A stretch of 63,200 nt of DNA, the filler included, from Neolecta irregularis DAH-3 (lineage: Eukaryota): the NCBI GenBank assembly GCA_001929475.1. It is 13 parts of 13 records of this genome, joined end to end, with 100 filler letters (N's around TTAATTAATTAA, not from the genome) between each part and the next. Parts side by side here need not be neighbours in the genome. Positions count along the whole stretch, not along the records: positions 31,312 to 32,821 come from LXFE01001397.1; positions 32,922 to 36,318 come from LXFE01001399.1; positions 36,419 to 47,985 come from LXFE01001400.1; positions 48,086 to 57,443 come from LXFE01001401.1; positions 57,544 to 60,322 come from LXFE01001402.1; 8 more parts are not named here. One strand, 5' to 3'. Both the position numbers and the translations under genes were made by a program. Below are positions 32,058-60,113 of the stretch, piece after piece. Position 1 is the stretch's first letter, and every line of letters starts with the position of its first letter. The notes beneath the pieces were generated by a model. It ran no database searches. It was given only the letters and a program-made list of their open reading frames with translations, and was not told the origin of the DNA.

Positions 32058-32821
32058 ATGATATACTCAAAATACTTTCTGGCTCTAATCTCTTGGGTAA
32101 TTCTCAGCATTGTCATACTCATTACGACAAAAAAGCTCTTTGAAACACCCAAAGTCCTCTCGACATTCACAAGCAACAGAACGCTCGGCTTTGGCGAAAT
32201 TTACGTGATTTCACTGCCTCATAGAACCGACCGCCAGGATGCAATGTTTCTGATGTCTCTCAACACTGGCTTCGATATTAAATTTATTGACGGGGTGGAT
32301 GGGGATGCTGTTGCTGACAAGGCCATACCTGGGAACACCAAAGAGGGTCTTAGCCCTTTACCTGGAGTCGTGGGGTGTTGGAGAAGTCATATGAATACAT
32401 TAAAAACGTTTCTGCAATCCGGAAAAGAGGAATGACTCCTTGAATGAAATGTATGCTGACTGGTAGACTGCATTAATTATGGAAGATGATATCAATTGGT
32501 CTTTTCGTTTAAAAGAATCTCTTTCAGCGATTGCCGTCAATATTAACCATCTTGAATCGCAACGGCTAGGCGATCAATATGTCTTTGACAGGAAAAATCC
32601 TTATACATTGACTTGGGATATCATTTATCTGGGTTCATGTCTTGAAAGCGTTCCAAAGAAGGATGTTGCCGCGACATTTTATGACGATACGGTTCCCTCG
32701 AGGGAAAATACCACCGAGCACTATCTTGCAATACTGAATCATTTTCGTGCTCCTCAAAAGCATCGCATAGTAATTGAAGCTCAAGCTCCCGTATGTACAT
32801 ACGGGTACTCTGTGACCCGTC
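32058..32821 (+). CDS. Glycosyltransferase family 25 (type II membrane; 3' truncated; intron 32430-32466)
   Basis: NRTLGFGEIYVISLPHRTDR.D, FIDGVDG, GCWRSHMN, |TALIMEDD..W, WDIIYLG.C, PVCTYGY.VT. Confidence 0.9.
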
Positions 32822-33668
32822 NNNNNNNNNNNNNNNNNNNNNNNNNNNNNNNNNNNNNNNNNNNNTTAATTAATTAANNNNNNNNNNNNNNNNNNNNNNN
32901 NNNNNNNNNNNNNNNNNNNNNTGCTAACATAAAATGATTTCTATCTGGCCATTTCTTTCATTGGTGAAGTATGCTGCACATACAAAGGTCATGTCGTATC
33001 ATCCTGATCTTGTGTCACGTGATCCGTGACAAATCTTGCGAGTGTAACTTTGAGCAAATGGCAATCCATTCACAATTGAACAACCAACCAACGTATTCAA
33101 ACGAAACAAACACTATCGGGATCAGAATTTAAAGGCAAAACTAATGGTCTGTCAACGAATTCAATACAAGAAAGTCAAAAGGGGACCTTTGAAGAAGCAT
33201 CACATGGAGGAAACTACCAAACTGCCATAAAACCTAGCAGCCTGCCAGAGCATTCTCCAGGCGGGTGGTTGGATCTCTTGGTGAAGGCGGGAGGCATAAA
33301 AATCCGGCCTGAGAGGTCCCACCCGCCAGTTCGTAAGCAAGTAAGCAAGCAAATTCAACTTGAAAGTTTTACTTATTAGCAAGTCTGATGACTACTAAGA
33401 AGTACTTCTGTCAAACAGCATTCTATTTCTAGGGTTTGCAGTAGACAATGAATTATTTCAATGAGTCGCATTTGAAATGCGTGAAAGATCCACTACACTC
33501 ATTCCACCCATATCTACAGAACTGATTCAATCGTTACATCAGAGTTGGGAGAGATCAGAGAATCAAGGATCATCTCCACAGAGATGAGCTTTATAAGGAG
33601 ATGCACAAATGCCCTGAGGTCCCCCCAAAGCGCCTATTGTATTCTCTGAAAATCTTTCAAACTTGTTA

Positions 33669-34264
33669 TCAACCGCGAACCCAAACGTTAAAGACCAGGT
33701 AACCTAAATGCACACAAGTAAGCATTGAACATCCCAGTGCTCCGTATAATCCCCACTCAGAGTACTGCTTGAACCATATCATCCAAAATCTTGGCCTAAA
33801 CCATCCCATGTTTGTAACCAGTTCTAGAAAGATGACTTTAGATATCCATGACATGCCGGTCAATAGGAAACTCAGACGAAGGGTGAACGAGGTCGACACA
33901 AATTTAAAGCCATCACCGAGGACAACATTGGAGAAGAGATATAATGGGAGGCTTGGCAGTAAACTGATTATGAACATTGGCTCCGAGGCAATATTGTGGG
34001 CCTAAGAGGTCAGCTATACTGGGAACGGGGCAGCCAGAATATGACATCATAGTAGAGTTTTCCATTTTGTAGATAATCGATATGCAATATCGAGAAAAGA
34101 GATATCCCGGGAGATTCGTAGACACTTGTTCGAAATATCACAGGGGTCGATGATTTTGAATGGATCTTATCAAGAGCGTATTCACGAGTTATGACCAACA
34201 AAGACTGAGATCTCTGGGAGTTAACTAGATCAGTAGATCGAGAGAAACGTACTGTGGTAGTCAT
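33669..34264 (-). CDS. Hypothetical multi-exon membrane protein
   Basis: ORFs 34010-34264 and 33669-33977 join in frame through a GTCATA...TTAG intron; hydrophobic second half. Confidence 0.4.
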
Positions 34265-34945
34265 TCTATTCGATTTGATGTTTCAATGATTCAGGAGATA
34301 TGACTGTTCCTAAAGCACGATTTTGACAAAATGCGTCATAAGTTGAGGCAGTTTGACGAAATAATACCAACCAGAAAGGTTACTGCAAGTGATAGTCAGA
34401 ACCGCTAGATGTTGGAGGAGACACTTCCGTTCCCAGGCTAATAGCGTCCTTCAAAGTCACCTGCAGCAAACATGAGGTCAGAATCCCTGTTCGAAGTCTT
34501 GATTTAAATTATAAACTCCAAAGATGATCAGTTTTGGACAGGATCAAAGCTGTCTCGTGGCAATTAACAGGGAATGAAGGACTGCGTGATTCAGGGTTGC
34601 GATATTGGGCCTTTGGTCCAGAAAATGATCATAAGAATAGAAAATCGTATCGCACCAGTCTGTTATCCTAGGATTTAGGGTTAGAGATATGGCTATCTCA
34701 GTTTCAAGATGTATCATACTCGCATGGCTCAAAATTGATTCACTGGGTGCTTAATCACGTACCACAACACCTATTTTGCAATCAAAAATCACTACAATAG
34801 CTGGGAACCCACGAAAAAACTTGATCGGTCCAATATCATTGACTCTTACAGAGAAGGATTATTTTCGGAAAACCCGCATTATATAATTGCTTTGTATTGT
34901 TAATAGAGAAATGACCAGGGAACCAGTTACAATCAATAATATACG

Positions 34946-57543: not shown

Positions 57544-59350
57544 CAGGGCTCCTTTGGCAAGGTCAAGCGTGAGTCGCTCCGCCTGCCCTGCTCACTCCAG
57601 TCGCCCGCCATGCCTCAACCCTCCAGCACGTCGCCCTCAAGATAATAAACCGCCGCTCCCTCGCAACCTCGGACATGGCCGGCAGAGTAGAGCGCGAGAT
57701 CCACTACCTCAAGCTCCTCCGCCATCCCCACATCATAAAACTGTCCCCCCCCCACCCCTGCCCCTCCTGACCCAACAGCTACGAGGTCATCACCACCCCC
57801 ACAGACATCATCATGGTCATCGAATACGCAGGCGCAGAACTCTTCGACTACATCGTCTCCAGGGGAAAGGTCCGTCCCCGTACTACCACCCCTCACCCGC
57901 AGATGGCCGAAGACGAAGCCCGCCGCTTCATCCAGCAGATCGTCTGCGCAATAGACTATTGCCATCGCCACAAAATCGTCCACCGCGACCTCAAACCAGA
58001 AAAGTATCAACCCCACCCCTTTCCACGCTTACCCCTGCTTGCTCCTCGACGACCTCGCAAACGTAAAAATTGCAGACTTTGGCTTGTCCAATATCATGAC
58101 AGACGGAAACTTTCTCAAAACTTCCTGCGGCTCCCCAAACTATGCCGCCCCAGAAGTCATCTCGGGGAAACTCTACGCCGGCCCAGAAGTAGACATTTGG
58201 AGTTGCGGCGTCATCCTCTATGTAATGCTCTGCGGACGCCTCCCCTTTGACGACGAATTCATCCCAGACCTTTTCAAAAAAATAAACGGTTCCTCCTTGA
58301 AATATTCTTCTAATTCTAGGCGGCATATACAGCATCCCCTCCTTCCTCTCCCCCGGCGCAAAAAGCCTGCTATCCCGCATGCTCGTCGTCAATCCAATAG
58401 ACAGGATAACCATCCCAGCCATCATGGATTCAAAATGGTTCAACATCAATCTTCCAGACTACCTCAAACCTCTTGAACGTATTGCAGACCACACCCGCGA
58501 CGAAAATATCGCCTTGAAACTCTCCAAAGTACTTTGCCCTGCTCCATCCCTGACTGCTAGACCTTTTCCTGCTCCATAGACGATGTGCACGACCACCTCA
58601 ATCGCAAAGAACAAAACGACATCAAAGAGGCATACCTCCTGTTAGCAGAGAATCAAAACATGCGCAAGGATTGTTCGTCATCACATAATACCCGCTGACA
58701 TCCAGCCAGATTAATCGGTGCCCAAAACATGCAAAACTTCTTCGCCTCAAGTCCCCCTTCCTGGAATCACGTATATTTCCCTCTGCAACGCGCTAACTTT
58801 CCAGGGAGGTTCTCACCGCTCTCCTCGTTCTCACCATGCCTCGCAAGCCCACCATGGCACTCCTTCTCCCCTTGTCTTTGGCTTCCGCGGCGACCTCTCT
58901 GAAAAACCCCCCCGTTCGACAATCTCCATACTCTCCTCCTCTCTCCCTTCATATCATGAATCCTTCATGAGACGAGAAATGCCAGACTTTCACCTCGAAT
59001 CCCTGCCCGCGCGGAAAAACAAGACTCGCTGGCATTTCGGCATTCGGTCTCGGTCTCCCCCGTTGGAAGTAATGGCCGAAATATACCGTGCCCTCGAAAA
59101 AATGGGCGCACAATGGTCCTTTCACAATCCAGACCCATTTTCAATTAAATGTCTGTGGAAAAAACAAGATGAAGGAATGTTGATTCATATGGATATACAA
59201 CTGTACCTCCTTGAACCAGGCAGCCATCTCGTCGATTTCAAATCTGCGGGATATTATACAATCTCCACCGGCGAGGAAATTTCAAAACCCGCAATGTCCC
59301 CGTTTCCTTTCCTTGACATTGCTACAAGATTAATCACATCACTTGTTTAA
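57544..59350 (+). CDS. snf1: Snf1/AMPK alpha catalytic subunit (5' truncated, multi-exon)
   Basis: [80 protein letters not shown]-terminal [14 protein letters not shown]. Confidence 0.97.
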
Positions 59351-59414
59351 GTAGGCTAGGCTATTTGTGCGAGTTTAGTTCATGCAGAGGCAAAAGGCAA
59401 TTCAATAGTATTAT

Positions 59415-60113
59415 TCAATTTGAATCCGAACAAGAATCTTCCCCCTCATCTCCATCTACAAGTCATCAAAGGAAAACTTTCAAACATACCATCAACCACG
59501 TCTGGTTCCATATTGAATGTTAGTTCTGCATGACGCAGGACCTTGGTTAATTCCGTCTGCGTATAATCCGCATAATCAATAGGTTTCCTCTGCTGTTTAT
59601 TCTTCACTCTATTCTATTCAGTTAAATTCAGTTTGTAAATATCACCGTGGATCAGCACCGGCGTCGAGGAGTATCTCCACAATCTAAAGTGAGTTGAATT
59701 TCTTTACAATGTACCCGAAGGCCTGTTTCTGGGTCGTGTTTGGCACAGTATACGGCTTCGTGTAATGGTGTATTTCCTAGTATAAGCCGTGTCGATTCAT
59801 TCTTCATACTTTCAAATTTGTCGACCGGATCGACTTCTAGTCCTTCTTGATCAAGCAGTATCTCTACACATTCGTAGGCTAGAGAATTAATACAGACCCT
59901 GTTAATTGACCTTCATCCGTAACGCGCAGCGATATGAAGGGCTGTCCGTCCAAGACTATCCGACGACCCATTCAATAATCGAAGAGACCGACGTTTGTCA
60001 AGCGTCTCTTGCAACAATTCAATGTTATTCTGACGACAAGAAGCGAGCAGACGTTCACCTATACTTAGCACATCCCTCGAATACATACCATTAGACGCCC
60101 CTTGACTCGACAT
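59415..60113 (-). CDS. Ankyrin repeat protein (YCR051W-like), multi-exon
   Basis: GASNGERLL.SCR.NN.ELL, D.LGRTALHIAA.YG, LLDQEGLEVDP, NTPLH.AV, LLDAGADPR.KNK, acidic tail. Confidence 0.88.

Follow-up and report, generated by a model that had tools for sequence, protein, structure and literature searches.

Probable U2-type introns beginning with GA in three genes of the ascomycete Neolecta irregularis

The stretch of DNA analyzed here (hereafter, the window) comprises 63,200 nucleotides from Neolecta irregularis DAH-3 (assembly GCA_001929475.1). It carries an Ish1/Msc1-type gene, part of a glycosyltransferase family 25 (GT25) gene and an ankyrin-repeat gene, each of which contains a segment of 36 or 37 nt that starts with GA, ends with AG and is probably removed as a spliceosomal intron (Table 1). 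The window consists of 13 contigs of 1.2–11.6 kb each, concatenated via spacers of the form N44-TTAATTAATTAA-N44, and distances and synteny across these spacers are thus meaningless; additional gaps of ten N are located at 38279-38288 and 60246-60255. The three GA-AG segments lie on three separate contigs (31312-32821, 48086-57443 and 57544-60322). All had been proposed as introns in a first-pass annotation of the sequence, and their coordinates, lengths and ends were borne out, as was the in-frame stop codon that each of the three genes meets if its segment is left unspliced.

Table 1. Genes, introns and spacers of the window (positions count along the whole stretch).
Feature	Position	Strand	Description
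Ish1/Msc1-type gene	51058-53029	-	8 exons, 7 introns; 571-aa secreted-looking protein with repeated Ish1 domains
GA-AG intron, Ish1/Msc1-type gene	52654-52690	-	37 nt, phase 2, GAATTT...TCTAG, branch CTCAT 7 nt before 3' end
GT25 gene, partial (ATG to contig end)	32058-32821	+	exons 32058-32429 and 32467-32821
GA-AG intron, GT25 gene	32430-32466	+	37 nt, phase 0, GAATGA...GGTAG, branch CTGAC 7 nt before 3' end
Ankyrin-repeat gene	59415-60113	-	public model P0011, 173 aa; revised model, 165 aa; Ank families in Pfam
GA-AG intron, ankyrin-repeat gene	59879-59914	-	36 nt, phase 1, GAAGGT...CTCTAG, branch TTAAT 8 nt before 3' end
GT-AG intron, ankyrin-repeat gene	59777-59809	-	33 nt, in frame, stop-free, coding in P0011
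GC-AG intron	54402-54440	+	39 nt, donor GCATTC; X2 joint with ends GC..AG
GC-AG intron, GH47 alpha-mannosidase gene	17055-17088	-	34 nt, phase 2, donor GCATTG
GT..TG intron, SNF1/AMPK kinase gene	58004-58037	+	34 nt, phase 2, starts GTATCA, ends CTG
Spacers	8025-8124, 11103-11202, 12416-12515, 21450-21549, 25954-26053, 28071-28170		
Spacers (rest)	31212-31311, 32822-32921, 36319-36418, 47986-48085, 57444-57543, 60323-60422		

Direct evidence for the removal of one of these segments was obtained from two sequencing runs, X1 and X2, both labeled 'DNA?', which were compared with the contig 48086-57443. In every gene that they cover, the contigs of run X2 are devoid of introns, and 22 short segments of the genomic contig are skipped. 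Because its contigs skip introns, run X2 behaves as derived from complementary DNA (cDNA), despite its label. The donor tallies rest on the 15 joints listed out of these 22 which, read on the coding strand, comprise 12 GT..AG, one GC..AG, one GA..AG and one double skip. Reading the latter as two GT-AG introns brings the listed tally to 14 GT-AG, one GC-AG and one GA-AG, so that GA-AG accounts for one of the 16 introns among the listed joints of this contig.

The GA..AG joint belongs to the Ish1/Msc1-type gene, in which six introns are taken from X2 joints and the first (52911-52947) is predicted only. The spliced reading frame of this gene is open and its exons match Pfam PF10281. Against the possibility, raised in the first-pass annotation, that transcripts would use other GT or GC donors or stay unspliced, an X2 contig skips exactly the 37 nt of the GA-AG segment. 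The joint is ambiguous over three letters; of its four equivalent registers, none corresponds to GT-AG, GC-AG or AT-AC, and the AG acceptor is kept in the GA-AG register only. There is no GT within the segment or in the 22 nt preceding it, and in the unspliced gene the frame shifts and the upstream frame meets a TAG. At this site, the GA-AG intron is precisely removed in a transcript-derived contig. Nor do the DNA data show a GT at its donor, an outcome for which the same annotation had allowed: between 52193 and 53690, the DNA contig from X1 matches the window at every letter, at a mean word depth of 340.

An artefact could in principle produce such a junction, through template switching by reverse transcriptase or through a jump of the assembler between the flanking 3-nt repeats, and the three letters that fit either side of this joint are the most found among the listed joints. 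However, the jump restores both the reading frame and an Ish1 domain, the removed segment has a proper branch motif and a TAG end, and an overlap of 2–3 nt is expected when an exon ending in AG (here TAG) precedes an intron ending in TAG. In addition, the junction falls at the same codon position as the verified GT-AG introns of sister repeats, which leaves an artefact highly improbable. Indeed, the GA intron is inserted directly before the W of a W[ST]DS motif, and three sister repeats carry X2-verified GT-AG introns with the same placement and phase (52450-52488, 52073-52107 and 51768-51805). The gene holds eight Ish1 repeats in total, four of them with introns at the same codon position, one being the GA intron. 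The gene has the look of an exon–intron unit duplicated in tandem, and the simplest history of its GA intron is that of a duplicated GT intron in which T at +2 changed to A. No identical public protein covering the exon behind the GA intron was found, the nearest match to the search with this exon being a 45%-identical unnamed protein that starts past the junction.

In the GT25 gene, the removal of the GA-AG segment is suggested by protein alignments. Left unspliced, the gene would meet a TGA two codons past the donor in the upstream frame, and the downstream exon lies in another frame; the 37-nt segment holds a stop in each of the three frames. Upstream of the donor, no GT is closer than 22 nt, and the one at that distance is out of frame. 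The two exons were joined by coordinates and the product was aligned with 10 homologues. The resulting junction, FLQSGKE/TALIMEDD (the slash marking the exon boundary), is gap-free in 10/10 homologues, the Lipomyces protein reading FLQSGLETALILEDD at this place; given these alignments, excision would be exact to the base. The first exon scores 20.2 bits against Pfam PF01755, under the gathering cut-off of 24 bits, and the homologues carry PF01755. The best non-self homologues (from Lipomyces, Geoglossum and others) are 41–53% identical, a distance that fits an isolated, early-diverging ascomycete. Among proteins of 252–2000 aa, no public protein identical to the first exon was found.

For the ankyrin-repeat gene, a public model is available. 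The window encodes P0011, 'Ankyrin repeat-containing protein [Neolecta irregularis DAH-3]', letter for letter once five introns are removed. The GA-AG segment of this gene is in frame and holds one TGA. In its place, P0011 uses a 45-nt GT-AG intron (59879-59923) with the donor GTTACG and the same acceptor. This longer intron drops three residues, RYG, so that P0011 reads LHIAAPYECVEILL there, and the GA-AG model restores the RYG of LHIAARYGSYECVEILL. Both models were compared with orthologues retrieved by a profile-free search with P0011, which listed 150 hits; 30 of these (single-stretch, 149–275 residues) were aligned, out of about 35 short hits in a single stretch. All three RYG columns are filled in 29 of the 30 aligned orthologues and two of the three in the remaining one; the YGS motif of the GA-AG model is common to many of them.

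The alternative specific to this gene is that the real intron is the 45-nt one, the GA donor 9 nt downstream being unused or minor. The 45-nt intron is the one used by P0011, which the window encodes exactly, and it is the sole canonical in-frame way to remove the TGA. Nevertheless, it deletes from a canonical ankyrin helix the RYG whose positions nearly all orthologues fill, and its donor departs from the consensus of the species at +4 to +6. In addition, P0011 keeps as coding a 33-nt GT-AG intron (Table 1) whose 11 residues are absent in 30/30 aligned orthologues, which makes this model an unreliable guide. P0011 thus seems wrong twice, with three conserved residues lost and an 11-residue intron kept. 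On these protein alignments, the GA-AG reading appears the better one, and exclusive or predominant use of the 45-nt intron unlikely. Readthrough of the TGA was set aside, as it would insert 12 residues that are absent in 30/30 orthologues.

The anatomy of the three GA introns was compared with that of 56 GT introns of the window, comprising 18 verified ones and predicted ones from the better-scoring gene models. In this set, A is found at +3 in 49/56 introns, T at +4 in 35/56, G at +5 in 21/56, T at +6 in 34/56 and G at -1 in 26/56; the median length is 37 nt (range 30–48). Ordinary introns have the donor consensus G-T-A-T-(G)-T, a YTNAY branch motif about 7–9 nt before the 3' end (mean distance 9.2 nt in the 21 of 22 training introns having the motif) and a YAG acceptor. 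The GA introns fall inside this range of lengths, have their branch motif at a distance of 7–8 nt from the 3' terminus and share the TAG acceptor; under a model trained on GT introns only, their scores correspond to percentiles 68, 60 and 9 of the GT introns. Save for +2, the GA introns are ordinary. They lack the 5' terminal GU of U2-type introns, GA standing in its place in all three; this GU is not absolute for the class, because GC-AG introns exist.

U12-type introns have an extended donor of the RTATCCTT type and a branch site resembling TCCTTAAC. Such an identity was rejected for the GA introns, whose donors are GAATGA, GAATTT and GAAGGT and whose branch motifs are of the U2 type. Nested 'stwintrons' were set aside, as 37 nt leaves no room for them. 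Ire1/HAC1-type splicing, translational bypassing and RNA editing of GA to GU were considered as further alternatives and set aside.

The same features bear on the proposal that the genes are pseudogenes, or that the segments are not removed, the apparent introns being disruptions. Decayed sequence does occur in the window, which holds a Ty3/Gypsy-like relic with in-frame stops (28171-31211). Yet all three GA segments combine a branch motif at the species-typical distance with a TAG end and a modal length, their flanking exons are open and conserved, and the Ish1 segment is missing from a transcript-derived contig; disruption is accordingly a most improbable explanation. As to the relic itself, it lies on the minus strand and shows gag-, protease- and reverse-transcriptase-like frames, recognized by eye from the translation, with several in-frame stops in place of the W, R or Q/E expected from relatives.

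Among the nucleotides adjoining the donor, an AG at the exon end is found at 4/8 non-GT introns and 9/56 GT introns (Fisher p = 0.047), a weak enrichment; three of these eight non-GT introns are predicted only, and two of those were later doubted or rejected. At best, it hints at compensation by way of pairing with U1. The GA sites themselves read AG/GAA in two of three cases and AT/GAA in the third, with A at +3 in 3/3. The first-pass annotation had noted an A at +3 in all non-GT donors; this observation is true and uninformative, because A at +3 belongs to the general donor consensus here, as the GT donors indicate.

Other introns of the window also depart from GT-AG. Four GCAT donors had been put forward; two of them were verified, a third is predicted only and the fourth was rejected. 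The GC-AG intron at 54402-54440 is an X2 joint. In the GH47 alpha-mannosidase gene, the exons flanking 17055-17088 end and start at positions 28 and 32 of Pfam PF01532, with exactly three residues between. A second GC-AG intron, predicted near the 3' end of the same gene and past the Pfam domain (15694-15728, minus strand, donor GCATGT), has the highest score of the non-GT candidates (9.6). The rejected one (28594-28626) bypasses stops of the decayed Ty3/Gypsy-like element.

The SNF1/AMPK kinase gene provides a different case, missed by the first-pass annotation, in which the 3' end is altered. Its intron at 58004-58037, whose branch motif, CTTAC, precedes the 3' end by 6 nt, would be of the GT..TG type by homology; one wrong base would also explain it. 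On S. pombe Ssp2 (3h4j_B), the flanking exons cover residues 105-137 and 139-221, and they are placed likewise on four S. cerevisiae Snf1 chains and at Pfam Pkinase positions 127 and 130. The split codon, AA/C, yields exactly one residue, the invariant N of HRDLKPEN. When the sequence was read through, no AG was found between the donor and the conserved VKIADFG exon. Because of this intron, the looseness may not be confined to +2 of the donor and may extend to the 3' end. Collectively, the relaxed +2 (T, C or A) that had been claimed is supported as a pattern, with three GA-AG and at least two GC-AG introns, although that claim did not include the 3' end.

Before such a pattern is accepted, it has to be considered whether the true splice sites are canonical, the unusual letters being errors of base calling or assembly, or alleles differing from the individual that provided the RNA. 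In favor of this view, the two runs differ in their organism labels, the assembly may have been made from X1 itself, the letters at the GT25 and ankyrin sites are known from the assembly alone, and all four odd dinucleotides are A/T transversions (GT to GA three times, AG to TG once). Conversely, X1 reproduces the window around the Ish1 site without a single other letter. Over 9.4 kb, X2 and the window differ, among the differences listed, at only 11 substitution places and two one-letter gaps. The conserved exons are also intact; as an example, an 83-aa stretch of the SNF1 kinase aligns end to end with S. pombe Ssp2 (E = 4.7e-48). With conserved exons and so few differences, four errors or rare alleles hitting splice dinucleotides in unlinked contigs are very unlikely.

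The frequency of GA-AG introns was considered on the basis of three sites in 63 kb, beside GT-AG introns predicted in the same window. For this purpose, a self-written exon-chaining predictor was used, self-trained on the window, crude and unvalidated, which yields 62–68 GT-AG introns depending on settings, or roughly 60–70. As an internal control, the 15 non-GT donors were given an equal prior; GA was then chosen twice, at the GT25 and Ish1 sites, and GC twice; five other dinucleotides were chosen once each, with lower intron scores. With looser priors and an intron score of at least 7, four GC and two GA introns were obtained and 0/14 controls (GG, AT, CT, TT). A naive scan for open-reading-frame rescue with all donor dinucleotides was abandoned as too noisy: it gave 12,695 candidates at 311 loci, GT not being enriched. 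Several individual candidates were likewise discarded. The segment 30455-30487/30499 (GG or GA) bypasses stops in the decayed Ty3/Gypsy-like element, and 58669-58705 (GA) creates a stop codon, a GT donor 4 nt downstream winning instead. The pair 40276-40309 (GC) and 40335-40373 (GA) was distrusted as part of a run of three non-GT predictions at a gene 3' end.

Three GA-AG introns, two GC-AG introns and one GT..TG intron were finally counted as established. GT-AG introns represent on average 98.7% in annotated fungal genomes, according to the available text of a large survey (PMC7072748). At an assumed rate of 0.1%, the probability of at least three GA-AG introns among 70–130 introns is 5e-5 to 3e-4, and that of at least six non-GT-AG introns at 1.3% is 3e-4 to 7e-3. 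Non-GT-AG introns in the window are thus far above fungal norms. The excess over chance that the first-pass annotation had drawn from three GA-AG introns in 'one 63-kb window' is upheld, with the correction that this window is made of 13 separate contigs and that the loci are unlinked. Since the sites are on unlinked contigs, what the excess points to is a genome-wide trait rather than a local one.

Two further observations were made in the window. Low-complexity stretches which are GC-rich (about 51–52%) occur at 1-5500, 12000-13600, 21550-23000, 53100-54100 and 60423-61200; they give long proline/arginine- or glutamate-rich frames on both strands and alternate with gene-bearing DNA of about 40% GC. 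X2 contigs cover 52948-53506, and at least that GC-rich part is transcribed. On the plus strand, a micro-exon of 14 nt (54630-54643) lies between GT-AG introns of 37 and 34 nt (54593-54677), on the basis of an X2 contig with 13 extra letters across an 84-nt skip.

Collectively, these data make it probable that the three segments are genuine U2-type spliceosomal introns which start with GA, are precisely removed and differ from ordinary introns of the species only at +2. Several points weigh against this conclusion. 1) Only the Ish1 site has transcript evidence, the GT25 and ankyrin introns resting on protein homology, and the +2 letters of the latter two (32431 and 59913) are known from the assembly alone. 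2) X1 may be the source data of the assembly and would then be non-independent, and if X2 comes from another individual, the allele of the Ish1 donor in that individual is unseen, the intron being absent from X2 contigs, which also give no measure of the efficiency with which GA introns are spliced. 3) The remaining splice signals show no compensation for the altered donors (Mann-Whitney test, p = 0.16 with the eight non-GT introns and 0.60 with the three GA introns). 4) In the ankyrin gene, the 45-nt GT-AG junction is possible as a second isoform. 5) The count of GT-AG introns comes from an unvalidated predictor that misses known introns and calls false ones in the dead retroelement.

The GT at the start of introns is among the most conserved signals of eukaryotic gene expression, and A at +2 normally cripples splicing. 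This position pairs with U1 small nuclear RNA (snRNA) early in splicing, and the GU is later held in the catalytic center. Since +2 acts at both steps, a GA donor must pass both. The GA introns would most likely have arisen from ordinary GT introns, through a T-to-A change still accepted by the spliceosome of the species. In N. irregularis, +2 would be loosely read, T being found much more often than C, and C about as often as A. With donor, branch and acceptor gathered within about 37 nt, the intron may be defined as a unit, which would lower the weight of any single position. Such unit definition could in turn confer tolerance of one mismatch to U1 and U6 and of a non-U at +2 in the catalytic center, and the same looseness possibly reaches the 3' end, as in the GT..TG intron of SNF1. 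A variant snRNA or a changed protein factor may underlie this tolerance, the components proposed being U1, U6, U5, Prp8 and U1-C. An Rfam scan of the window at gathering thresholds gave no matches and no snRNA gene.

A broader proposal is that the terminal dinucleotides are loosely read throughout the genome, with T, C or A at +2 and occasionally T at -2 of the acceptor. Several percent of the ~37-nt introns would then be non-GT-AG, and N. irregularis would be the first fungus known with GA-AG introns at the percent level. This extension is put forward tentatively, at slightly less than even confidence.

U2-type GA-AG introns at the percent level have been described in the animals Oikopleura dioica and Eurytemora affinis, and at such introns that survey reports that AG is conserved at the exon end and that A follows the GA, a U1 variant being proposed for E. 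affinis (Frey & Pucker 2020, PMC7072748). Of the Neolecta GA sites, 2/3 have the exon-end AG and 3/3 have A at +3, the latter being general in the window. The two cases differ in scale, since the frequencies in these animals are genome-wide and based on RNA sequencing, whereas in Neolecta three sites in 63 kb are considered. Oikopleura introns are also very short, and GA-AG introns occur in dinoflagellates too.

In Fritillaria borealis and other larvaceans, a lineage-wide loosening of the terminal dinucleotides affects both intron ends while the core spliceosome is kept; duplicated U2AF paralogues and altered N6-methyladenosine (m6A) on U1 and U6 have been implicated, according to the excerpts available (PMC13326754). 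Like Fritillaria as described there, the Neolecta window has an altered 3' end, with its single GT..TG intron. In contrast, about 95% of Fritillaria introns escape GT/AG in that account, while roughly 90% of those in the window are still GT-AG. GC-AG introns, which form the major non-canonical class among U2-type introns and are found in the same genome, are affected at the same +2 position, the rest of the donor being alike (GCAT versus GTAT and GAAT). They differ in that most eukaryotes tolerate C at +2, at a level of about 1%, whereas A at +2 is normally very rare.

In human, GA 5' splice sites of FGFR genes are efficiently used by the major spliceosome and, in the portion of the survey that treats them, depend on a canonical site 6 nt upstream (PMC7072748). 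Compared with this description, a GT is nearby only at the ankyrin site, 9 nt upstream, the Ish1 and GT25 sites having none within 20 nt. Similarly, TG 3' splice sites of human U2-type introns are alternative sites beside an AG in the available text (PMC2374985), unlike the SNF1 intron, for which no AG is available.

A literature search yielded no report of GA-AG splicing in fungi or of non-canonical introns in Neolecta, as far as the accessible portions of the papers extend (PMC5309816, PMC8476143, PMC10878826). The main text of the Neolecta genome paper, in the version available, contains 0 occurrences of 'intron' or 'splice', and its supplementary annotation methods may bear on this point (PMC5309816). 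No outlier for GA-AG among fungi is named in the available parts of the survey, which covers 2.3 million annotated splice sites of this group (PMC7072748). Splice-site surveys are built on annotations, and these may, as here, be restricted to canonical sites. GA-AG introns and lineages rich in them are already known in animals; the fungal case, on three sites, would be new.

If GA-AG introns, and possibly GT-TG ones, do reach the percent level, N. irregularis would offer a compact and independent natural case for studying how the major spliceosome relaxes its reading of terminal dinucleotides; it belongs to the branch of Ascomycota that also includes fission yeast, a genetically tractable organism. 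Genome-wide looseness, if true, would represent a convergent parallel to larvacean tunicates and Eurytemora and could be tied to ultra-short, unit-defined introns, perhaps together with a changed U1, U6 or U2AF component. Gene finders limited to GT/GC-AG mis-model such genes, P0011 being an example, and under such looseness a large share of the public gene models, restricted as they are to canonical sites, would be mistaken wherever these introns occur. N. irregularis thus seems to tolerate unusual intron ends that public gene models mishandle.

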